Shown here one piece after another: positions 5,901 to 32,311 of a stretch of 64,000 bases of DNA. A model generated the notes under the pieces. The model searched no databases, was not told the DNA's origin, and saw only the letters and a program-made list of their open reading frames with translations. The position numbers were made by a program, and so were the translations under genes. Origin of the DNA: Giardia intestinalis (taxonomy: Eukaryota); the NCBI GenBank assembly GCA_000002435.2, contig CM018793.1. The stretch is one strand, 5' to 3'. Every line of letters begins with the position of its first letter. Positions within the stretch are counted from its first letter, which is position 1.

Positions 5901-8900
5901 ATGAGCTTTCAGCTCCACGTCTCCCCTGGGCCTTCCCAGCAGTTGCTGCACCAGGGGATAGTTGTCAAGTACTCTGGGTCCACCTCTGTGGCAGCGCAGA
6001 AGAGTCCAGTACTCTCCGACAATTTGAATGCCTGCACGGCTTCAGCCTTATCGAAACAGATTGCAAAAGTAGGAACTCTCAGTTCTCATAAAGTCATAGA
6101 CATATCTCTTTGTGATGACGCGGCATATGTTCTACTCTCCACCGGACAGCGCCTGAAGCTAGCCGTTACTCCTCCTGAGGACCAAGCCGCCACTTCCCTT
6201 TTTACCTCCGCTCCTGTCGAAGACTTTGTAGCCTGGCCAGCCCTGTCCTTTCCGGGGCCAGAGTATCTTGCATGCCAGACGCGAGTCGTAGTCGTATACA
6301 ACTTTCTATTCAGGCCCTCAAATGTATCTACCAATGTTTTGGCAGAACAGCCAGATAATGCTGCTGGCGAGGGTTCGCAAAAGCACCTTTTTTCGTATGT
6401 AGCGCTTATTTTCAGCAATCCACAATTTCTACCAATGAACAGATTGCTTCTCGACGGTAACTTTCTAATTACTAACTGTGCATTTGATGAAAGCACAGTT
6501 ATAGTATCTCTTCTTTCCGGTCATATTCTATTTATAGATCGTACACAGCAACTCCAAAAGCACAATGTAATTGACTCCAGCAACTATAGCTATTACGGTT
6601 TAATTTCCTATGCTTCTCTTGCTTCGCAATTAATGAGTGACTTCCAGTCAGCCTTTTCAGGCAATTTCTCTTTCCGTGAAGCGATCCGCCTTCTATCTAT
6701 CTCCCCCTCCAAACACGTTCCATTCATTGCATTTCGTGGTTGTGACTTTATCCTTGCCATGCCACTAGGATGTATTTTCATATTTACAAGGCATAGACTA
6801 CATGACGGTGGCTCTAGTCGCCTAGTTCTTTCTCACGCCACAGTGACTCTTCCATTTGTGCGCCATGACCTCCCTAACAAGAGCTTCAAGATAACGCACT
6901 ATGCGGCAAGCCGAGTTTCTTTCTTCCTGCCGGTCAGTGATACCATACTGATCGTTGGCTATGATAATTCTGTGATTCAATATTACTGCTGGGATGTTGA
7001 TGGAATGGCACATCCATTAGATGGTGTGGATCTTTCTGCGGGAAGGATAACCCATATTCACGCTGGCTTGATGCTTTTATCAGACTCCAGGGACTCGGCG
7101 TCCAGTTCGAGCACCTCTGGGCTTACACACCCAACACAACCATCTAACATGGTTCCCGTTAAGGTGCTTATTGTAGCGACCATTGGCTCGTCGCTTTTCT
7201 TTGTTGTCCAATGCTTTCCCAAAATGGCGCTTATTACCACCATTTCTGCTCCAGAAAGATTTATCGACTCTGGAAAAATCTGTTCGCCTACTAATCAGCA
7301 GTTTTCCCCTATACTTATTTACACTGCAATTGATGGGTCGCTACGATATACCCACTTCCCGAACGGGTATCTATTCCGATCCGGTCTTTATGAATCCGGT
7401 GAAACTGCTCAGCATCACGAGCGGCCAGACAAGACAGTTCAAAAGATTACTTCACTCCTTAAAAATGTCACCTGTCAATATGAGAGCGATGAGTCTGCAT
7501 CTGAACTTAATGTACTTAATGATAGATCTAAGGCCGCCATTCCTGCGTTTCTACTTAGTTCTAGTGAACACGAAGCTTCTTCGCACTCGACAGAAGAACA
7601 CAATAGGCCAAAACGATCCATTTTGGACATAGGTAATATAAAGACTGAGCCCACTGGCTCTTCCCACCGTAGAAAACGGCCCCGAAAGTTAACCAGCATT
7701 GGTGCACGCTCCAGTCTTTGGACTCCGTCAGTTCACAATAAAGTGTTAGCTCTGGGTGAGCCAGCCGAACCTGAACTGCTGCAATCGATAGAATCGCTTA
7801 GTATTTCACCATTCGATAATAAGTCTACATCTCCCCATGTAGCGCCAACATTTCAGCTTGCATGTAGACCCTTTGAACAAGTCAGTGTTCAGCTCGGTAC
7901 TGAGCCGCTTCTGGTGGAGCTCCAGGGACTATATTCGCTTCTAGGGACAATACACCGAAGGAAGTTAGAGACGGGAGAACGGGTGTCCTATGATGATAGT
8001 TCTTTGACCAGACTTAGCATTATCCGCAACACCCACGATCTGATCAAAAGGACAGCACTTATGACACAACGAGTTACAATCTCAGAATACCAGAAGTCTA
8101 TCTCCCCCTCTATAAACATTCATAAGCTGTTGATGTCACCAGAAAATCTCACGCGCGCAACAGAGCTACTCGCTAGAAACGACCAGATTTTTCGTTCATC
8201 CAGAAACAGAATTCTGCCTCACGTTCGAAATGCATATCTCCACCTCAAGTATGCTGATAGAGTAACTGGAAAGGCGAAAAAGAGGCCAAGTAGCCCTTTC
8301 CGCTTGGCAAGACCCTTGGCCAATCAATTTGCCCCACTAACTAAAACTGGCTCCCTGACCTCCACCATATTCTCTGGTCCACGAAGATCCTTGAGTTTAA
8401 AACCATATGGAAGTCATCGTGGTGTGCACGGTCACCTTAGTGCTGAACGTGTCCTGAAGCACAAGGGGAGTCATGCGTTTCGGTATCTCCCTATCCTAGC
8501 CCGGGATCTTATGCTCGATAATGTCTATCCTGTTCTTATGGAGCCAGAATACATTTCACGAAGTGCATGGTCTCCCTCGCTTAAACCCCGTGAAGGACCA
8601 CATCACCTAACTAGTATTATAATGAGATCAAGAAGCAGGCAAACAGAGCTAATCACTCACAGACATACGGATAACTTCATTGGTGTACTCCGCAGCAAAG
8701 TGCTTGAGAAACCGGTAGAAGGAACTCTCAATAGAGTCAAACACAAGGAGAAGGAAAGGGCCCGCCCCAAAATAGTAGTTAACAGATATGAGCATATCAA
8801 AGTGATAGACAAAGAGTTATTGAAGGACCTTCGCCGCTTCAAGGCGCTCAGGCTTGGCCGTGACTTAGGAGGTAGAATTCTTCGAGACAAGGCAGTTCTT

Positions 8901-11900
8901 AGTGCTCTCCTGACGGGTAAAAATGCCTCTGAGAACCTGAAAGGCCTTATCGATCTTACCAACCACGATAGCATGTTCCTGGACGACATTCTTTCTATGG
9001 GTAAGAATATCATTAGCATACTCGATCCTGAAAACGACTGCATTCTTGAAAGCATCCCAGCGTCTAGAATGGCAAGCAGTCGCAAAGGCCTGAGACCTGG
9101 TAATCTCACTGATCATGAGAGCTCCACTCAAATGGATGCCGTCGAGATCGCTCGTCTTATTACACCAAAGGATACTTCGTTGAGGACTCTGCAGCACAGT
9201 AGGCCACCTACTGCAGAGCAAAAGGATCTCTTTGGGTTTGATCTAATGAACCAACTGCTTCGTAATTTCGACTATAGACTAAATCGGAGGCGTGTGCGGA
9301 GCGGCATAAATGGCATCATCACTGTTTCTGATGAGTATACCAAAACAGTTTTGCTCCGAAGATCAGCCTCGTTGCCAACAATTGAGACCCTTAATAGAAA
9401 CAGGATTGATTTGGCCACAAAACTAGATTCCATTTTGGGCCATGAGATGGGGATAAGTAGATGGGATGAGGACGCAAATCGTAGCTATCGTGCACGCATC
9501 CTTTCAATAGATCGTCTTTCTGATCCTGAGAGCAGCATTTGGGATACTGAGGAAACGTTCAGCTCTTCCTACAGCTCTGTGCCGAGCGATTTAGAGGATA
9601 GCGGGGTATGTATTCCTATGCCTGCTACAAGTTTGGTACCATTCGCTGCACGGAACTGCTTTTCAGCAGATGCGCCTAGACGAGTGAAGTTGTCGTTAGA
9701 CAAAGACCCTCTTCCTAGAAGATCGTATTCTGCTAGGCGAGCCGCTGAGGCGACACTCATAAATCTGCAACCTTTAGACACAGACCTGTATGCTACTCGC
9801 ATAGCTACCTGTGGAACCATAGATTTAGGAATAGATCTGGATAATGACAGGGCAGTTACTCCGACAGGACGTGTGCACCCTGATAATGTTGACAGTTCAG
9901 GCTCAGAGGGTCCTTCAGATAGCGATGTGCCCCGCTTGAACTCCGGGACAAGATCTCCGAGCCCTACTACATCGTTGTCTGATACCATATCCAATGAACC
10001 CACTGAATACGCACCATCTATCTTCGGCATTAGAGGAGAGTTTGATCCTAATCAATACGTCGTCTCTTCGTCGTATCTCCCTGACCTTTTGCTTCGTGCA
10101 GCGCTTCAAGATTTAAAAAAGCAAATGGCGACTACGAGCAATACAAAAAGGCCTTTACCCCTGCTTCGAGACGATTGTTCACAAATATTTAAAGCATTGC
10201 GCAAACCATCTATTATATCCAACATCAAGGTTCAGAAAAAGCAAAGTCAATACGGATACAACCCGTTGTCCCGGTACTGCATGCAAAACCATATGTTTTG
10301 TCCGCGAGAGCACTTCGAGCTCCGCACTCTAGCCACGAGAGATGTAGCTCTTGATGTAAAGCGGAGAGCATATTCATTTGATAAGCTGGAGCCTTTAATT
10401 CTCGCTAAAGAAAAGTATGGACAAAAGCCCATACAGTCCCAGCGTGCGCATAACCATCTTCTGAATGCTGACCTTAACGACAACACGTGCCTGTCTAACT
10501 GTCCAGATTGGTCGCTTAGAGACGATTATGACTATCTAAGTTTTAAGCCTATAAAGAGCAGAAGATGGGAAAGAAGAGGATATGCTGACCATACCGGTGC
10601 ATCGCTTATTACAAACCAACAACGAACCCCGCCAATAGTACAGCAATCTACAACCGTTGCCCCATATACTTTTGTTGGAGACGAAGACCATAGAGCTGCT
10701 GTTAGACTCAAAGCGTTTACTACCCACGCAGAGACCCTGGCCCTAAACCGGATAAAGCGAAGACAAGCAAGCACTCTGCCACTTATTACAAAAATGAGGG
10801 CCTTTAAGAAGCTTTTCACCAGAGAACTATACGAGGATTGGGCCAGATTGTATCGTCACAATGTGATCAGAAGGGATACCCTCTACGATGATCAGTTTGA
10901 GGTTACCGTCATGAAGCCAACGTTTCCACTATATTATCATGTAATGACAAACAAAACTGAAATGGACGGAATGATCAATAACATAATCAACGACGAAGCC
11001 GACGGCTTAGAGTCGGTTGTGCATGCAAATTTAGTGGTTACAAAAGCGCAGTTTCCCTTTTCTGGTCCTCAAAATCAGTCTATCGATTCTCTCTTTGACG
11101 ACATGCAGTTAGCACTAGGCTCATGGCCCGAGCAGCAGTCTGAAGAAAGCATGATACCACATCATTATGCTCTTCCTCCTAAACCACCTTATTACAACCC
11201 GCGAATTCCTGTTGTTGACTCCTTCGATGGATTCTATGATCCTGCTTCTATTGTTCCACTGGAGCCACTCCTTCCAGAAGGAGAGGACGGAATCCAGCTG
11301 CAAATTGGCGTGTTTACACCATATGCGTTTTGTCTAAAGAATCCCGAGTTTGTTGATAACGAAAAGCTAACAACGGTTTTAAATCCAGTTGCATACATGA
11401 GCTGCAATGACGTTATACTGAGTTCTTCTCACTGTGAGAAACCGCATAGTTTCCTAGCAAAGCATTTAAAGGAGGCGGGATACCCCCTGGCTGATGGTAC
11501 TGACAATGAACCATTAGACTTGGAGCAACTAGACTCGCGACAAGGCTGTCTAGCATCCTTTGATGTCAGAGTCAATGAGTTTATTACATCTTTCTTTAGT
11601 CTTTCCGAGGCTAGATCAGAGGACCTTCCAAAATACCACAAGGGTATCTATGCTCACTCAGTTCATTCATTGCCGTCGCATACAGAAGGTTTCCTTCCCA
11701 GGGTTCGGCTTTCCATGCTCACAGTTGGGCAGGCAGCAAAGACAGTATTCATACGATATTTTCAATCATTCACGCCAGTGCAGAGGAAGATAATGGCCCA
11801 GACTGCGTCACGAGGCATTACCATTGATTACAACCGGCTTAATTATGTTCCATATTCATTTTTGCAGCTACTGTTGCTCTACTCCACTGCACTAGCAATC

Positions 11901-19864: not shown

Positions 19865-20877
19865 AACAAATAGAGTTTTTACTGCTCACTTTATCTTACT
19901 TCGTTAATGATATTTACATGAAAAAGATCTATGGAAGTTTTGGATTGTATATATCATAGAATAGATTTATGGTTTGCTTGTGCTTATAACAGAGTGTATT
20001 TATCATGTAAAATACCTTCTATGCTTACAACCTTCTTGATTCTTCGTGAGTATTGCATTTAGGACTTTGTCTTCAAAACCTCCAATCGCCCTATATAGTG
20101 AATTGTGTGGTGAAGGCATCAAGCTGTGGTTTTTTCTGCTAACCGATCTGAATCCACCCTCTAGTTGATATAACGTTCTTCTGATGCATGTGCAATAGGC
20201 TTATCCAATGAAGGGGCGGCTTCCAAGCTCACTGGCGGGATATACCTACGCTAGTACACATTGTAGGCTACGCCAATGGAGCAGAGCTACGACTCCGTCT
20301 GAACGGCCGCACATCCCGCTGTGCACCCCTGGATTAGCACTCGTAGCTACACATACTGAACAGAACATCCCCGCCAGCTCGCCTGTTCTGCTGATACTGT
20401 CAGGATCACCGATTCCTCCAACGTCCCAGTAAGCCGGCCATCCGATACCGGCCAGGAAGCACAGATACATAGGACATCGGAGGATGCTCGAAATCTCCCG
20501 CTCTGGAATGGCTGTCGTCCTCCCCCTCTGGGTCTCTATTATAGTTGTACTAGTAGCCCACTGGCGTCCAACTCAATAATCACACACTCATCAAGCTAGT
20601 AACATCCAGAACAAGCCCTCTATAGACTCCTGCTAGTGTAACTGCCACGTGGTTGGAAGCGCACTACTAGAGGCTAGCCATTTACTATAGGGCTACTTTG
20701 TAAGGATGGCCACTATCTCCTTGAGAGCTGGAACAGGTGGAAGGCATCTTTAGAGGGCCTGCTTCTCTTAGGGACGGTGGTCCCGTGCACCGACTCACCT
20801 TGCGGTCAGAGAGACCATACTGGGACAGTTTGCCTGTGTGGCTCTAGGTCAGACCCACAAACAGAATTCGTCGACGC

Positions 20878-20884
20878 ATTTACT
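20878..20884 (-). promoter_or_regulatory. Giardia polyadenylation signal AGTAAAT, 9 nt downstream of the VSP stop
   Basis: Minus-strand reading gives ...TGC AGA GGC AAG GCG TAG atAGTAAATgcg. This matches the AGTRAAY consensus described for Giardia 3' ends and its typical position just after VSP stops. Confidence 0.7.
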
Positions 20885-20892
20885 ATCTAAGT

Positions 20893-23097
20893 CTACGCCT
20901 TGCCTCTGCACATAAACCACCAGCAGAGGAAACCGACGAGGCCGCCGACGACAATGATGACAGCCACGGCAATACCAGCGATGGCGCCAGTGGAGAGCCC
21001 GCCCTTGTTAGTGTTCTCGCCACTCTGCACGAGGTAACAGAGGACAGACCCTTTATCGTTAAGTGGAGGAGCGCAGCTAGCGCAGTTGGCGACGCCGGTG
21101 ATGGTGCTATCAGCGGTATTTGCCGTGCAAGACACACAGGTAGTCCCAGATTTGTAGTACCCAGTGCTGCAAATGTCGCAATTTGAGGCGGATCCTGCAC
21201 ACGTAGCACAGCCAGTGGCACACTTTGTGCACTTATTATCAGTCTTTACATACCCATACATGCATGTAGTACACACGGTGTTACTAGTGCAGGTCTTACA
21301 TCCAGGCGAGCAAGTCACAAGGTCATTGTTATTAAGATGATAGCCTGGAGCCTCTGTTTTGCAGGTATCCCCATCCTGCGTTACCTCCTCACAGACGTTC
21401 TTTCCAGGAAGTTTGGTCGTCTCATAGCAGCCCCCGTTCATACGAAGAAGCCCGTTGGCGCATTTGTTGCAAACACCACCTCCTTGAGTAGTGCACGTAA
21501 TAGCCTTTCCGGCCGCCGCCGAGCAGACTCCGTTCTGTGGAAACTGGTTGGCGTCCTTGCACTTGGAGCAGTAGGCCGTGCCATCGACTGTCAGCTCGCA
21601 CTTCTCGCAGTTGTTAGTACCCGGTTTGCATTCTGATTTGCACGTCCCCGTGTTGCCCTCTCCTTCGTAGCTGAGGGCCTTCTTAGGCTCGCAGCTCGTG
21701 CACCCGTTGGAGTTCCCGTTCGCGCATGTCTTACACGAGGTATCGCACTTGGCACAGGCGGCTCCGCTCTTGTAGTACCCGTCCTTGCAGGTATCACACT
21801 GTCCCTGAAGATTGCACAGGAGGCAGTTCTCAACCTCGCACTTCTTGCAGGCCTTCTTGCCCCCCTCGTTGGTGCCCGCGTAGTAGCCTCCCAGATCTCC
21901 GCAGTTATCGATGCACTGGCCCGTGGGCGTGAGGGCCTTGGGGCCTTCGCACTCTGTGCACACCTCCTTGCTTGTCTTCGGCTCGCTGCACGTCTTGCAG
22001 CCGGGGGTGTTGCACTGGGGGTCGGGCTTCTTCGTGCACCCGGTGCCCGCGCCGTTGAGAACGTAGCCATCAACGCACTCACAGGTGCCAGCGGTCTTTT
22101 CATCGTTGGAGTTCGAGGGGCAGTTCTCAACGCACGACTTCTTTCCAAGGCCAAACTTGGTCTTCGTACCACTCGTACATGTCTTGCAAACCACTCCGGT
22201 GGGGCCTTTCTCACAAGTGGTGCAGTCAGTTGTTCCAGCCGACACACATGTATTGCACTCCTTTGCTCCTTCATCAACGTAATGAGTTTCCGGGCAGCCT
22301 TTTGCGTCAACGCATGTGCCAGTTGTGGACTCGCCATCCTTCTTCAGGTACGGCTTGTCTCCGTTGCAGGAGGTGCACTTCGCAGCCTCGGTTTTACAGG
22401 TCTTGCATGTCTCAGCGCACTTGCTGCATTTTTTACCGTCAGTTGTATCGACGAAAAAGCCTGGGGCATCCGTGCACTCTTTTTCTGTCACGCAGGAGGT
22501 GGCTGGGTCTGTGGCCGTCTTCAGATACTTATCCGCCTGGCACGCAGTACACGTCGCCACCTTAGCCCCGCTGGCATCGGCTGGCGCAGGTGCATCGCAC
22601 GCTGTGCACCCATCCACGCCTTTGTACGTCTTATCAGCAAGCGTTACGCCCGTCGCGTCTCCGCACGAAACAACCGAGTCGTGGGTCTTATCTGCCCCCG
22701 GCGGAACAAAGTAAGCCTTCGATTCGAGAGCTTCTGTACACTTTCCGTCTGCCGCTGTTTTGCACATGCTACTGCCAGGTGCTTGACTCGTTTGGTAGCA
22801 GCTGCCCTTGTACATGAAAGTCTGCTCGGCGCACTGTGCACAGGTCCGATCAGCTGTATCGCCTCCATCGGCACCTTTACAGTTGGCTTTTGCACCTTCT
22901 TTGTCTGCACATTTTCCATTGATAGGAACAAATCCTGTGTTACATCGAGAGCAATACAATTTACCATCAATTAGAACGTCGCAGATTTCACAGTCATTTG
23001 TTTTATCTGCGCATTCAGCCTGTCGCGCGCGCTCTGTTACTTTTTCTGCCAACGCAATCTGGACGAGTACCCCCGCGAGAACAAAACTGCCAAACAT
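20893..23097 (-). CDS. vsp: Variant-specific surface protein (VSP), ~735 aa
   Basis: Signal peptide MFGSFVLAGVLVQIALA at the first ATG (the track start at 23247 is TTG). There are dozens of CXXC motifs and GGCY motifs (MNGGCYETTKLPG). The C-terminal TM helix AIAGIAVAVIIVVGGLVGFLCWWFMCRGKA* carries the invariant CRGKA tail. Coding sequence is GC-rich. Confidence 0.9.
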   Translation of the reverse strand: MFGSFVLAGVLVQIALAEKVTERARQAECADKTNDCEICDVLIDGKLYCSRCNTGFVPINGKCADKEGAKANCKGADGGDTADRTCAQCAEQTFMYKGSCYQTSQAPGSSMCKTAADGKCTEALESKAYFVPPGADKTHDSVVSCGDATGVTLADKTYKGVDGCTACDAPAPADASGAKVATCTACQADKYLKTATDPATSCVTEKECTDAPGFFVDTTDGKKCSKCAETCKTCKTEAAKCTSCNGDKPYLKKDGESTTGTCVDAKGCPETHYVDEGAKECNTCVSAGTTDCTTCEKGPTGVVCKTCTSGTKTKFGLGKKSCVENCPSNSNDEKTAGTCECVDGYVLNGAGTGCTKKPDPQCNTPGCKTCSEPKTSKEVCTECEGPKALTPTGQCIDNCGDLGGYYAGTNEGGKKACKKCEVENCLLCNLQGQCDTCKDGYYKSGAACAKCDTSCKTCANGNSNGCTSCEPKKALSYEGEGNTGTCKSECKPGTNNCEKCELTVDGTAYCSKCKDANQFPQNGVCSAAAGKAITCTTQGGGVCNKCANGLLRMNGGCYETTKLPGKNVCEEVTQDGDTCKTEAPGYHLNNNDLVTCSPGCKTCTSNTVCTTCMYGYVKTDNKCTKCATGCATCAGSASNCDICSTGYYKSGTTCVSCTANTADSTITGVANCASCAPPLNDKGSVLCYLVQSGENTNKGGLSTGAIAGIAVAVIIVVGGLVGFLCWWFMCRGKA

Positions 23098-23559
23098 TGC
23101 CCGATTGATAGATTGGTAGGAACATACTCGCGGTACATCAGTCAATCCGCGTCGATTGATGCAGTTGATTGATCCTTCTGGCACACGTTGACCACAGGCG
23201 CTGATGGAATCAACACTCACCGGGTCTATCGCGAACACTACTTGCAATCTGCAATCTCGGCACAGGGCCAGAAGGAGGTGGATTGAGCCGAACAGAACTG
23301 CGGCTGTCTCAATGTGTATGTCATACTAATGCACCTCGTGGCTCCGTTGCAATCTGTACGGACCATCCAGTGCGAGCCAAAGCTGCCACACGTGCACTGG
23401 GACAGTACTGCCCAGTAGCGGTCCAGAGCTTTCAATGGCTCCATCAACGGCCCACTGACAACTGCAAGGGCGACCCCCGCAGCTCTGCATAACGTGCATC
23501 CAAGGCCCGAGAGGCAGTGCACAGCAACGAGCGTCTCTCAGATGCGCCAGGAGCCCGTC

Positions 23560-24500
23560 CCAAGGAGTGTTCAGCCCCGATACCGCTTGGTGTGGCTGTG
23601 CTGCGTCTCATAAGGCACCTTCTGCAGCAGAACTAGGATCCATAACTGCGTTCTCCATTTGAAAAGTCAAAGGGAGCAGGAGCGCCCGCCACGAGGAGCC
23701 GGCCCCCGGGACGGCTGGGGCGGCACGCCTGTCTGCGGACCCATCCCGGGCTGCTGCGGCGCGCTCCAGGCGCATGGGCACAGCAGCAGCCCAGGGCGTT
23801 CCACCGGTTGCCGCTGCCGAGTCGATGGTCCGGTGGTCTCCCGGCGCCACCGCACCAGCAGGAGGCCGAGCACTGGCCCCCGTCCTCGGCTCTGTCCGCG
23901 GGCCGCTCGCATTGGAGCAGGGGCAGGGCCAGAAATGTTTTGTCCCTCGGGGCCCGCCTCTGGGGCGCCGCTGCCAGGTGGAGCCTGTCTGGGACGCGTC
24001 GTAGCGTGTGATTCTGTTAACACTACACCCAGAAAAGCGTTGACTGCATCTGGCGCATTTCCGGCAGACCTCTTCTGCGCCTGGTGCTGCTCGATGGGAC
24101 GACGGGGGCGCTCATAGCCCTCCGGTGGGCGGATGGGATTACGCCTGCCTAGTTCTCTGTCCTCTGAGCACAGCAAGAAGCGGACGATCGGGCTTTCCGG
24201 TGGAGCCATGAAGCGCCGCTGACGGGTAGGATGCACCCCAACACCGGCAGATGCATTGAGGGTCTCTTCTGCTGCCCTGGTCGAGGAAGATGTCATCCCC
24301 GGAAAGCGACGATTTACTTCGACAGCCAGCTATTTCTAGCGCTCTAGTACTGAGCCCCCTGCAGCCGCGGCCCAAGGGTTGCGCAAGTAAACCCACCTCC
24401 CCGCTCTTGTGTGAAGACGGGGACGAGCCAAGCCCGGCTCTCCCACTGCAGCAAGCTCTGGTGACTGGTAGTCCTTCCTCTCCCCAGTCTGTCTGAGCTA
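23560..24500. other. GC-rich (~65-75% by eye) apparently non-coding island within the VSP-HCMP divergent spacer
   Basis: Runs such as ccgcccgccacgaggagccggcccccgggacggctggggcggcacgcc. Overlapping low-complexity P/R/G/A-rich ORFs occur on both strands (23659..24117 +, 23667..24296 -), which is typical of GC-rich non-coding DNA. No Cys-repeat or other protein signature. Confidence 0.5.
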
Positions 24501-25090
24501 TTCGACAAGAATCAAGAGTGTCGGCTGGACGAGACCCATAGAGGCACTCAGTCTAGCTTTAGGACCCGTCTAATTAGCTAAATATAGTGTCTGTCTCCTG
24601 ATGTTGCGTAGACAGGGTATAAATTGAAAACTTTCCATCACCTAATGGAGTCTTCGAGCCGTTTCTCCAACTCGGAACGGAAGAGGCCATCCGCTCTGTG
24701 GTCCTTGATGCATATCTTGAACACGATCAAAAATAAGCAGGTTTCCCACGCGAGTTTTGGACCACGTCCACAAAGGGTTCAATATTACGGCAACACTTGT
24801 GAACAACAAAGCACCAGAGACAGCTTGCCAGAATAGTCAACACCTCACTACTTATCTGAAAGCTTTTCTACAATAATCAACATAAACAACTGCCATGTAC
24901 TTTCATCAGACCTGATTTACACAATATGCATTAGACACCACGAGCGATGGGATATTGCTCAAGCAACGGAAGTCAGGTAACGCAGCCCTTTGCAATAGGC
25001 ACCTGTATTGTAGTTTGCTCCTGTATATTATATAGTAAGTTTGTTGATATTTAAAGAGTTACCAAGACTGTTCAACTATTCGATAGCTAA

Positions 25091-26455
25091 ATGCAGATGT
25101 CCAGGAAATTTTTGTTAGCAATATTTATTCTACAACTGGCATGGGCCGTCCAAGTAGAAGATGAACGTGAAGAGGCAGCCAGTGACAATGTCAGTACGTC
25201 CGGGATATATAGTTTCACCATCGAAGACAAAAGGTATTGTCCCCAATGCAACCATAGTGAAGACAATCCTGACTCCATAAGCAGAGAGCATGTGGTAAAC
25301 AACACCATAAATAGCAAAGAGGCAGAAGAAGAGCCCACCAAATGCGGCGAGAATCTATACTTAAAAGTGGATTCAGGGACAACTTCATGCGTAGCAGGCG
25401 AAGACTGTGGAACTGGATCATTCCCTGGGACTGATAGTGCTGGTAATAGGAAGTGCATTTCTTGTAGCGATAGCGCTAACGGAGGCATACAACACTGTAG
25501 TGAATGCTCCTTGCTCGCTCCTACGAGTAGATCTGTCACTGTCCTTATCACGTGCTCTAAATGCTCTGCTAATAATCTTAGCCCTTTGGGCGATAAATGC
25601 TTAAGAAAGTGTCCTTTTGGGACATATGATAATGGTGATAACGTCTGTGCTCGCTGTCATGAATCGTGCGCTAGTTGCAATAACAGTCCTGAACCTACTT
25701 CTTGCACTTCTTGTTATCCAGGGTTTGTACTGGATCACGCTGGTGGGCCTGCTGGCACATGCATCCCAGAGTGCACGGGAAGATACGCGGAGAACTGCGA
25801 GGCTGGCCAGTGCACGGCTGTTGTGGGAACGTCCAAGTACTGCAGCAAGTGCAAGACTGGATACGTCCCAGTAGATGGTATTTGCGTATCGACAGCAACA
25901 AGAGAAGTCATGGGATGCACGCCAGGAAACGACGGGACATGTACGGCCTGTACAGGTACATATTTCTTACAATCTGGTGGCTGTTATCAGTCAACAGCGT
26001 ATCCTGGTATGAGATTATGTGAGCAAGCTCAAGATGGAAAGTGCACAAAGTGTGCTAACTTGCAAGCTGTAGATAAACAGGGCTCTTGCCCCTTGTGTGA
26101 AACTGGATGTGACCTATGCGGTACTTCAAGGACGACAGCATGCCAGGCTTGCTTTCCTGGATACTATCACTCTGGCACTAAATGTTTTAAGTGTACAGAT
26201 GATAGTGATGAAAGCGGTGTGAAAATCACTGGCGCCCCTAATTGTGTAAGCTGTGAACCCCCTAATCCCGGCAAGTCTGGTCCTGTTACATGCTATGTAA
26301 CACAGCAACCAAATAACGATAATACTGGGTGGTCCATGAATAGTAATGCACTTTCCCCGGGGGCCATTACAGGGATCTCTATTACAGTTATCCTTATTAT
26401 CGGTGGCGTGGCTGGCTTTCTTTGCTGGTGGTTCTTTTGCCACAAGAAAAAATAG
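25091..26455 (+). CDS. High-cysteine membrane protein (HCMP; VSP-like CXXC/GGCY protein lacking the CRGKA tail), 454 aa
   Basis: ATG start with signal peptide MQMSRKFLLAIFILQLAWAV. Multiple CXXC motifs and GGCYQSTAYPG. The C-terminal TM helix ITGISITVILIIGGVAGFLCWWFFCHKKK* ends in CHKKK rather than CRGKA. Confidence 0.85.
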   Translation: MQMSRKFLLAIFILQLAWAVQVEDEREEAASDNVSTSGIYSFTIEDKRYCPQCNHSEDNPDSISREHVVNNTINSKEAEEEPTKCGENLYLKVDSGTTSCVAGEDCGTGSFPGTDSAGNRKCISCSDSANGGIQHCSECSLLAPTSRSVTVLITCSKCSANNLSPLGDKCLRKCPFGTYDNGDNVCARCHESCASCNNSPEPTSCTSCYPGFVLDHAGGPAGTCIPECTGRYAENCEAGQCTAVVGTSKYCSKCKTGYVPVDGICVSTATREVMGCTPGNDGTCTACTGTYFLQSGGCYQSTAYPGMRLCEQAQDGKCTKCANLQAVDKQGSCPLCETGCDLCGTSRTTACQACFPGYYHSGTKCFKCTDDSDESGVKITGAPNCVSCEPPNPGKSGPVTCYVTQQPNNDNTGWSMNSNALSPGAITGISITVILIIGGVAGFLCWWFFCHKKK

Positions 26456-30376: not shown

Positions 30377-32311
30377 CTATTGCTTTTCTCCTTGGACCGG
30401 CTGTGTTGTGCATGCCACGGTTGCTGGGTCATCGGGATTAATCAATGCACGCTTTTCGTCGTTTTCTGTACCTTCTACTAACTTAGGATTGCTAAGTTTT
30501 ACGCGTTTCCTATGTATTACCGTTCTTATTACAAGTCCCAGAACGGCGGAGATGATCGCTAGAAGCAAAATGATTATTACTGATGTCACTATCGGAGATT
30601 GGGATTTAGGAGTAGAGTTTTTAAATATTATTAAAGAGGGAACTGTAGTGACAGGCAGCGAATTGTGAGGGACTCCCCTGTGAGGAAGACCCGGCCAGTC
30701 AGAAAAAGTAAACTTAGGAAGGTCATTGTGAGTCCCCAGGGTGGGGCCAAAAATGGCCCAGAAGCTCATGTCGTTGAAGTTATAGTTGGCAACAACCTTG
30801 GCATCTGTGGCACCGAAGGGGGCAGGGTTTTTCCCGCACTCCTCATATGATCGCAGGTCGTACCGTGATGCAATAGCACTACCCGGATCCTTATTGGATG
30901 CACTGTCGGTCTTATAACTGTTATGACGCATAAGAGTTACCATAGACTTACAATTACCAACTCTGGTCCCTTCTCTCATGAAAATAGAATAGCGGGGGCT
31001 TCCCTCGTACGGATCATCGTCATGGAAGTACCCATACTTCCTGACATAAGGATCTGCAGGGACGTTAATACTGACATACAGACCATCGTGGATGAGCTTG
31101 GAAGTGGCATCAAAGGACTTATAGTATCCTGGAACGACCTCCAAGGAAGTCAGTATAACAGGCGAATGAGTCCTTATATAGCTATCACGCTCTCCGCGTG
31201 TCTTGCACATAGAGTTGATTGTATCCAGGATAGCATAATCGGTGATGAGCCAATTGTCATTATATGTATAAGAGATTTTGTTGGTAAAAACCTCTGGCCA
31301 ATTGGCAGCCGATGAGGCTATTAGGTTTGCTGCCATAGCTCTAGACCATGTCAGAACAGAGGTGTTACTGGCTCGTGATATAGCGGAAAGTGCTGCTGTA
31401 GTATTCATGATGTTGTAGGATGTTTCTATGACTGAAAACTTGATAGGGTGCCCGGTTGTTTTTTCTGTCCCCTTAACGATATAGAAATCGTCAACAGAGG
31501 AAACAAAGCCAGGATACGAGCTGAAGCTAATTTGCTGTGCAGTTGTGTTGAGGGTCTGGAAATTGAAATCATAAATCTTCATCACACGCAAGAAACCAAA
31601 TCCCCAGGATGTCCACGTGGCATGCCCTGTGAAGATTTCATCTAAATCGTCTGCTATTCTCACACACCCGCTGCAATGTGAATAGAGCTGTTCTGCAGCT
31701 CTGTGCTCAATGGATTGGATGACTGTTTCATTGTCACCATAAAGAAGGAGCTCTAGACCTATTTCCCAGTCACCTATTGACGAGAGCATGTAAAACTCGT
31801 CTTCCGATATGTCAATCAGCTTCAGAGACGGATTATCAATACTATAGCGCATGTATCCTGCGTGAAGACCACTTATGTACCTGTCACTCATCAGATACGT
31901 TGCCACCCAGAAGGGCTCGAGTCCGTGGGTGTGATAGTTGTGCACAATGCGGGCTCTGCTTTCGGATGCATACTCTCGGAACTTACTCGGCCAATTGCCG
32001 TCATAGAGCTCAGAAAAGGTGTCGTCCATCACATTCCTCATATGATCTTGAATTTGAGGGGCAAGAAGATAGCCCTCTGCATACCCCATATAGTAGGCAC
32101 GCTCCTCATCGGTATCATGTTCCGCCGTGCTTGCTGCAGAACGAAGTTGATAGTATCCTCCAACTGAATTGACGTCCGTTAGCTCGGAGTTAACTATAGC
32201 ATTGGACGCAAAATTGTGGAGCAAGCTAACACCTCCCTGGTCATCGCGCACAATGGCCAGTCGTCTGGATGCGTGTGCAATGGTAACGAAGGATGTCAGG
32301 ATGAGAAGCAT
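30377..32311 (-). CDS. Phospholipase B-like (PLBD/LAMA family, Ntn-hydrolase) protein with C-terminal TM anchor
   Basis: ATG start with signal peptide MLLILTSFVTIAHA. The internal ...LYSHCSGCVRIADD resembles the autoproteolytic H-C-S-A nucleophile site of PLB-like proteins. Overall length (~640 aa) and Y/W-rich composition fit the family. The C-terminal hydrophobic stretch IVTSVIIILLLAIISAVLGLVI is followed by a basic tail. Confidence 0.6.
   Translation of the reverse strand: MLLILTSFVTIAHASRRLAIVRDDQGGVSLLHNFASNAIVNSELTDVNSVGGYYQLRSAASTAEHDTDEERAYYMGYAEGYLLAPQIQDHMRNVMDDTFSELYDGNWPSKFREYASESRARIVHNYHTHGLEPFWVATYLMSDRYISGLHAGYMRYSIDNPSLKLIDISEDEFYMLSSIGDWEIGLELLLYGDNETVIQSIEHRAAEQLYSHCSGCVRIADDLDEIFTGHATWTSWGFGFLRVMKIYDFNFQTLNTTAQQISFSSYPGFVSSVDDFYIVKGTEKTTGHPIKFSVIETSYNIMNTTAALSAISRASNTSVLTWSRAMAANLIASSAANWPEVFTNKISYTYNDNWLITDYAILDTINSMCKTRGERDSYIRTHSPVILTSLEVVPGYYKSFDATSKLIHDGLYVSINVPADPYVRKYGYFHDDDPYEGSPRYSIFMREGTRVGNCKSMVTLMRHNSYKTDSASNKDPGSAIASRYDLRSYEECGKNPAPFGATDAKVVANYNFNDMSFWAIFGPTLGTHNDLPKFTFSDWPGLPHRGVPHNSLPVTTVPSLIIFKNSTPKSQSPIVTSVIIILLLAIISAVLGLVIRTVIHRKRVKLSNPKLVEGTENDEKRALINPDDPATVACTTQPVQGEKQ

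Follow-up and report, generated by a model that had tools for sequence, protein, structure and literature searches.

Among the genes of Giardia intestinalis WB clone C6 (assemblage A) recorded on the 4,018,654-bp chromosome (chr5), a VSP gene and a divergently oriented, VSP-like HCMP gene are separated by 1,993 bp of DNA enclosing a discrete, GC-rich block of about 900 bp. The pair lies within a stretch of 64,000 nucleotides, which was analysed as a whole and is referred to below as the window. We consider that the block is probably a neutral, non-coding and low-copy dispersed repeat of assemblage A, a relic of duplication and recombination in VSP regions. It occurs in multiple flank contexts, diverges at a neutral rate and lacks coding, RNA and rRNA signals. 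The features on which the following account depends are given here in order of position; the letter L with three digits denotes a contig carrying the block or a related locus.

20893-23097, minus strand: VSP gene, 734 aa with a CRGKA tail; Pfam VSP match at E=4.5e-152 and exact match to WB VSP P0085.
23098-23644, no strand: VSP-proximal spacer (Rw), 547 bp, 94.5-94.7% identical to L009 and L021.
23645-24545, no strand: GC-rich homology block, ~900 bp, 64% GC with a peak of 76.5%, probable low-copy dispersed repeat.
23667-24296, minus strand: P/R/G-rich open frame of 209 aa inside the block, judged to result from the GC content and not to be a gene.
24546-25090, no strand: HCMP-proximal spacer (Lw), AT-rich just upstream of the HCMP ATG.
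25091 or 25097-26455, plus strand: HCMP gene, VSP-like; Pfam VSP match at E=1.8e-57.

The gap between the two genes is the largest intergenic distance in the window, about twice the next, on a greedy map of ATG-initiated open reading frames (ORFs). It had been described as an unusually long spacer of about 2 kb in an initial annotation made from the sequence alone, and this is correct; the accompanying statement that distances elsewhere are 8-160 bp holds for most gaps (8-165 bp) but not for four of 380-485 bp and one of 1,028 bp. The conspicuous GC-richness noted at the same time was confirmed by windowed GC content. For 900-bp windows the highest GC value of the whole window, 0.649, falls in the VSP/HCMP gap (mean 0.475, sd 0.036), and all 200-bp windows exceeding 0.68 lie within 23614-24039. 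The maximum of 0.765 at 23700-23899 is also that of the window, and values of at least 0.595 extend across about 23400-24500. The observed/expected ratio of CpG, 0.79, is the same as that of the window (0.76) and there is, therefore, no CpG-island type of signal. No G-quadruplex motifs were found anywhere in the window.

Block limits and exchanged flanks

Copies of the block were traced via the contigs underlying a single protein cluster (Logan and ENA predictions) that is matched by the 209-aa frame, and they were compared using BLAST, multiple alignments and nhmmer. Eight further contigs carry the block with 95-99% identity, and all of them are of the assemblage-A type. Homology stops abruptly at both ends of the block, which on the plus strand starts with TCTCCATTTGAAAAGTC... 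and ends with ...GACGAGACCCATAGAGG, and between assemblage-A assemblies the flanks are exchanged exactly at these points. Thus, the GC-rich island is real but its limits, earlier placed at about 23560-24500, are shifted to 23645-24545 when defined by homology. Self-BLAST of the gap revealed no second copy within the 64-kb window. Neither the block nor the Giardia small subunit (SSU) primer site was matched when JGI metagenomes, GTDB genomes and IMG/VR were scanned for exact patterns, and there was no plasmid similarity.

Two types of left flank were distinguished on the HCMP side of the block. The window and L021 share Lw, to at least position 24683 with 93.4% identity, and in L005, L006, L007, L008, L009 and L020 it is replaced by a chr3-type flank, L6. 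On the VSP side there are three types of right flank. The first, Rw, consists of the 547-bp spacer and continues into the 5' end of the VSP gene; it is the type of the window, L009 and L021. It is swapped for unrelated sequence in L006/L007/L008, where the second type, R6, reaches the 3' end of another VSP gene after 757 bp, and also in L020, which carries the third type. In L009 and L021 the block is accompanied by both Rw and the 5' end of the VSP gene, and these two contigs differ on the other side, L021 having window-type flanks on both sides and L009 combining L6 with the window-type right flank and its VSP 5' end. The initial annotation had linked VSP genes to rearrangement breakpoints, and here the link is borne out, since the block edges coincide with rearrangement or recombination junctions of VSP-bearing DNA, at which flanks are swapped exactly.

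The same block is consequently found at no fewer than two loci with unrelated flanks, one of the chr5 type and one of the type seen on the 1.97-Mb chromosome. The genes of L6 correspond in WB to those for a Ring-finger protein (KAE8302585.1), a coiled-coil protein (KAE8302584.1) and GL50803_0061066, all on the 1,973,847-bp chromosome. In L006 (39 kb) the block lies downstream of annexin genes, a coiled-coil gene of the KAE8302584.1 family, an identical Ring-finger gene (KAE8302585.1) and a gene of 258 aa, the WB records of all of which are on the 1,973,847-bp chromosome. The sister locus of the block is thereby placed about 1.4 kb downstream of GL50803_0061066, near the Ring-finger gene, on the 1.97-Mb chromosome.

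The GC-rich zone extends further in L006, with 58-77% GC at 6800-9000 followed by a dip and then by the block. It holds a genuine gene whose initiator region is AT-rich; this gene corresponds to WB GL50803_0061066, for which there are orthologues in P15 and GS_B as well as paralogues in Giardia itself. The possibility that this zone is foreign or mobile DNA was rejected because it carries a conserved Giardia gene and is, therefore, native. Members of the family are encoded in DNA of 62-81% GC in both assemblage A and assemblage B (L022) and, given that the assemblage-B orthologue is likewise GC-rich, the high GC content of the sister locus is ancient. For the block itself, no counterpart emerged from BLASTN, tblastx or nhmmer in the 1.5 kb downstream of the assemblage-B orthologue in L022, the one orthologous locus examined, where tblastx and nhmmer gave compositional noise only. 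Genes neighbouring the L022 orthologue differ from those at the assemblage-A locus.

The GL50803_0061066 family (L006 7486-8277, plus strand; L022 3481-4497, plus strand) is uncharacterised, conserved and Giardia specific. Its members carry an invariant motif, RIYHWYRETH.R...KMT..DR, which by eye is SANT/Myb-like and for which there is no Pfam match. In addition, nine contigs that carry the Ring-finger gene (L011-L019) all stop close to where the GC-rich zone starts, at most about 50 bp short of this point or 400 bp beyond it; these short-read or draft contigs end at positions mapping to L006 6752-7183. GC-rich zones are thus systematic assembly breakpoints in Giardia assemblage A.

Some evidence on the number of copies per genome came from assembly behaviour. 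Two Logan contigs from WB-like isolates (SRR3177760 and SRR3178012) enter the block from the HCMP side and both end at 24495. The window copy and that of L005/L020 are identical from 24524 down to 24398, with the first difference at 24525, and 24495-24525 comprises exactly 31 nt. Logan graphs are built with k=31, and contigs ending 31 nt from the first variant are what such a de Bruijn graph yields where a repeat makes it branch. L005 (921 bp) ends at both block edges, in one case at 23652, the last base common to the right-flank types, and in this it resembles a collapsed repeat unitig. Allelic heterozygosity in WB is reportedly very low and a second locus is, therefore, a simpler explanation than alleles. 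Judged by these contig ends, at least two copies of the block probably coexist in one WB-like genome. Copy number appears to be low: the ORF of the block is represented by only six cluster members, compared with 176 index blocks for the neighbouring gene for phospholipase B (PLB).

The sharp limits could also be those of a complete or fragmentary non-autonomous mobile element, inserted as a unit of about 0.9 kb with defined termini at VSP-adjacent sites. Such an element would produce homology ending at a single nucleotide, as observed for the two left and three right flank types, although these common break points can be derived by recombination from two loci; it would also produce the occurrence of a low-copy sequence on different chromosomes. 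However, the block ends show no terminal inverted or direct repeats, no target-site duplication and no poly(A) tail, there is no reverse transcriptase or transposase signal in or beside the block, no empty site was seen and the copy number is very low. Furthermore, the joining of L6 to three right flanks is better explained by recombination at one locus than by separate insertions. Together, these observations make a mobile element unlikely. A comparison can be made with the 'dead' non-LTR (long terminal repeat) retrotransposon relics of Giardia, GilD. Like them the block is degenerate, non-functional, internal and dispersed in assemblage A; unlike them it has no reverse-transcriptase-like frame or poly(A) end and is present in far fewer copies.

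Relationships among the copies and rate of change

The copies fall into two groups. Those of WB, L005 and L020 are mutually 98.4-99.4% identical over the block, those of L006, L008, L009 and L021 are 95.4-98.0% identical, and identity between the groups is 95.2-96.3%. Clustering is by lineage and not by flank, and both flank arrangements occur in both groups. Some copies appear mosaic. Despite their different left flanks, L009 resembles L021 in its left third, and it is similar to L006/L008 in the middle. In a four-gamete test 171 of the 820 informative site pairs were incompatible; spatial clustering of the incompatibilities gave a permutation p value of 0.08 and is suggestive only. These patterns would be explained most simply by transfer of sequence between paralogous copies, through gene conversion or ectopic recombination, and by swapping of flanks at the block.

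The block diverges at the same rate as its non-coding flanks. Between WB and L021, identity is 95.3% in the block, 94.7% and 93.4% in the spacers and 95.6% in the 5' coding part of the VSP gene. Between the L006 lineage and WB-like contigs, orthologous intergenic sequence is 95.7% identical and mostly coding flanks are 98.5% identical. The block thus evolves at the neutral rate, with no sign of selection.

Substitutions between copies comprise 38 transitions and 2 transversions. Such an excess might be taken for an RNA or editing signal and this was considered and rejected, because the flanks show the ordinary bias of the genome, with 121 transitions to 14 transversions (~8.6) between the same lineages (L010 versus L014, 9.1 kb). 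A transition bias of this order between assemblage-A lineages could mimic an RNA- or editing-like pattern in any short region. Two A/G sites lying 8 nt apart, 24337 and 24345, always covary (CTAGAGCGCTAG versus CTGGAGCGCTGG). The A,A state is found in WB and L020 and not in the otherwise nearly identical L005, and the pair may reflect a small templated or conversion event.

Flank exchange at the block raises the question of whether it serves as a functional recombination boundary for VSP cassettes, maintained as upstream homology in the manner of the 70-bp repeats of trypanosome VSG genes. By analogy this would account for the exact position of the exchanges, for the presence of a VSP gene 547 bp away in the window, L009 and L021 and of another following in L006, and for the location of the closest WB VSP paralogue on the chromosome that carries the sister locus. 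We consider it improbable, since divergence is neutral with no conserved core motif, the copies are few relative to roughly 200 VSP genes, and both orientation and distance to the VSP gene vary, the next VSP gene of L006 being met tail-first. Moreover, antigenic switching in Giardia is viewed as epigenetic and not recombinational (PMC2996952). The block resembles the Trypanosoma brucei repeats in being non-coding homology upstream of a variant antigen gene at the boundary of an exchanged segment, and differs from them in that it is not tandem, does not occur at most VSP genes and has no constant distance or orientation; nor is there evidence of VSP switching by DNA transfer in Giardia. A stronger form of the same analogy, in which the block would be a dedicated homology module, with VSP genes moved between chromosomes by recombination initiated within it and its GC-richness the footprint of GC-biased conversion, seems to us quite improbable.

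Coding, RNA and ribosomal DNA interpretations

Long P/R/G-rich open frames on both strands, reported earlier, are present (minus strand, 209 aa; plus strand, 152 aa), and their length is an argument for a missed or decayed protein gene, either the 209-aa frame itself or a degenerate HCMP or VSP copy. A weak local match of 23% between the minus-strand frame and residues 109-275 of HCMP might be added to it. Against it, variable sites in the 209-aa frame are distributed as 14/21/19 over codon positions 1/2/3, with no third-position excess, and the synonymous share of codon differences (23-38%) is at the level expected for random transitions (34%). The frame is broken in other copies: those of the L006 group have one extra nucleotide at 24263, and that of L021 has an in-frame stop. 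Codon usage log-odds are flat in all six frames, neither long frame nor the ORFs of the sister locus match Pfam, and protein searches with the 209-aa frame (5.8 billion sequences, and exhaustive HMMER on 1.84 billion representatives) yielded only self-matches. The match to HCMP is equalled by 1.4% of shuffles before correction for 12 frame-by-protein tests and does not align the cysteines, and a degenerate HCMP relic was accordingly rejected. A missed or decayed gene is thus essentially refuted, and the block's non-coding nature, as initially annotated, is borne out; a frame conserved with codon periodicity, which would have made it a missed gene, was not found.

There is also little to suggest an RNA gene. 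A lineage-specific long non-coding or structured RNA, or a related element regulating the VSP and HCMP genes, would be compatible with GC-rich, non-coding sequence. The most speculative version, telomerase RNA (TER), could draw on the motif GGGTAGG at 24224-24230 (plus strand), which corresponds to 1.4 telomere repeats, is invariant in all copies and, read on the minus strand as CCTACCC, resembles a template over 7 nt. The TER of Giardia is still unidentified (PMC10999387). By our own estimate, however, a chance match to such a 7-mer is expected about once per two such blocks. Rfam yielded no match for the window at the gathering threshold and nothing above chance for the gap (23000-25200) at E<=10, and folding energies do not differ from those of dinucleotide shuffles (z=-0.10 for the minus strand and +0.23 for the plus strand), indicating no excess stability. 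Covariation, for which the seven closely related sequences offer limited power, was also at control level: the RNAalifold covariation term contributed -2.17 of -383 kcal/mol, and 2 of 296 pairs were compensatory, equal to the 2 in a slid control (-3). The motif CCTTYNHTHAA, characteristic of the 3' ends of Giardia non-coding RNAs, is absent from the gap. Furthermore, the block occurs at several loci, diverges at the neutral rate and was undetected at the one assemblage-B locus examined. An RNA gene is, in our view, very unlikely. The structured non-coding RNA proposed in the initial annotation is thus not supported, and neither is a conserved regulatory element, given that the sequence diverges as fast as the spacers.

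Searches for tandem and inverted repeats yielded nothing meaningful. At the GC peak there is an 18-nt imperfect inverted repeat (23745-23795) with 83% complementarity and a 15-nt loop, and it draws weak, chance-level matches to microRNA models.

An origin from ribosomal DNA (rDNA), for example its intergenic spacer, or from a subtelomere had also been proposed. The block is GC-rich, as is Giardia rDNA, and the assemblage-B sister orthologue has a VSP-like gene on one side and a kinase/ankyrin gene on the other, which recalls the known telomere gene unit of VSP, kinase and ankyrin genes together with rDNA (PMC10999387). The block shares with this unit its high GC and its proximity to a gene for a cysteine-rich surface protein; it differs in lacking rRNA similarity and telomere repeats and in being low-copy and chromosome-internal. 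No match to the rRNA models was detected in the gap (E<=10) or in the 3.8-kb GC-rich stretch of the sister locus (scanned as L006 6300-11575, E<=1), and permissive Rfam scans of both regions gave only chance-level microRNA and small nucleolar RNA matches. There is no TAGGGTAGGG (<=1 mismatch) in the gap, nor any TAGGG repeats, and the window is dense with housekeeping genes. Moreover, frames derived from rDNA should abound in every Giardia assembly, and the ORF of the block occurs in only the six cluster members mentioned above. Neither an rDNA origin, as judged by the rRNA models and copy number, nor a subtelomeric one is therefore supported, and we attach very little probability to a remnant of this kind.

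Possible origin, parallels and the surrounding locus

In the explanation that we favour, a neutral duplication and recombination relic, segmental duplication of VSP-flanking DNA would have placed the block at two or more loci per genome. It would then have provided a homology patch for ectopic recombination or gene conversion between VSP-bearing segments on at least two chromosomes, while drifting at the neutral rate with no detectable sequence-specific function. Such exchange at the block would lead to the flank combinations joined at its ends, to the likeness of copies within a lineage and to the mosaic copies. Its effect would be structural only, an enlarged spacer and a substrate for reshuffling VSP-bearing segments. 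We infer that the block arose by duplication and that gene conversion homogenises its copies. This agrees with the duplication and recombination through which the VSP repertoire is known to change (PMC2996952).

Several points weigh against this explanation. Duplication and recombination leave the GC-richness of the block unexplained, and GC-biased gene conversion or descent from an anciently GC-rich chr3 locus are guesses at its cause. The second WB copy is deduced from contig ends and not seen in a finished chromosome, and the samples behind L005, L020 and the ENA contigs are unknown and possibly mixed, such that alleles or strain variants of one locus may be among the copies. Three right flanks parting at the same nucleotide would fit a mobile element as well. 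Recurrent transitions could explain part of the mosaic pattern, the clustering of which reaches only p=0.08. Finally, there may be a lineage-specific transcript from the block.

A close known parallel is provided by the duplicated and recombining VSP-flanking segments of WB (Adam et al. 2010, PMC2996952). Like these, the block lies beside a VSP gene at an internal chromosomal position, occurs at more than one locus and shows signs of recombination. Unlike them, it is purely non-coding, is located upstream, is far richer in GC than its surroundings and has sharp ends common to several flank combinations; the earlier analysis covered coding regions and identical gene pairs (PMC2996952). There is also a likeness to low-copy repeats that mediate non-allelic homologous recombination and show concerted evolution, in the small number of ~1-kb copies, their 95-99% identity, the exchange of flanks and the grouping by lineage. 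In the present case, by contrast, recombination was not seen directly and the copy number per genome derives from assembly-graph behaviour.

If our interpretation is correct, the block carries little functional weight of its own. It would nevertheless mark a concrete junction at which VSP DNA has been reshuffled between assemblage-A chromosomes, and would thus bear on the diversification of the antigen repertoire, and it would account for the breaking of short-read Giardia assemblies at this locus. For annotators it would be a caution against annotating the long P/R/G-rich frames as genes or the GC peak as rDNA.

Some further observations concern the genes of the locus. The tight packing of the region is interrupted by long spacers that bracket the VSP/HCMP pair, with the 1,028-bp gap constituting a non-coding stretch (19865-20892) beyond the 3' end of this VSP gene. 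The PLB gene (30377-32311) corresponds to KAE8305737.1/XP_001707417.1 and is recorded on the same 4,018,654-bp chromosome. For HCMP there are two in-frame ATGs 6 nt apart (25091-25099) and the start differs among public records, with 454 aa in XP_001707420.1 and 452 aa, from 25097, in XP_001707420.2/KAE8305734.1. The closest WB paralogue of the window VSP is P0089, a 'VSP with INR' with 76% identity; it is located on the 1,973,847-bp chromosome, which also carries the sister copy of the block. The DH protein on the syntenic contig shows only 80% identity.

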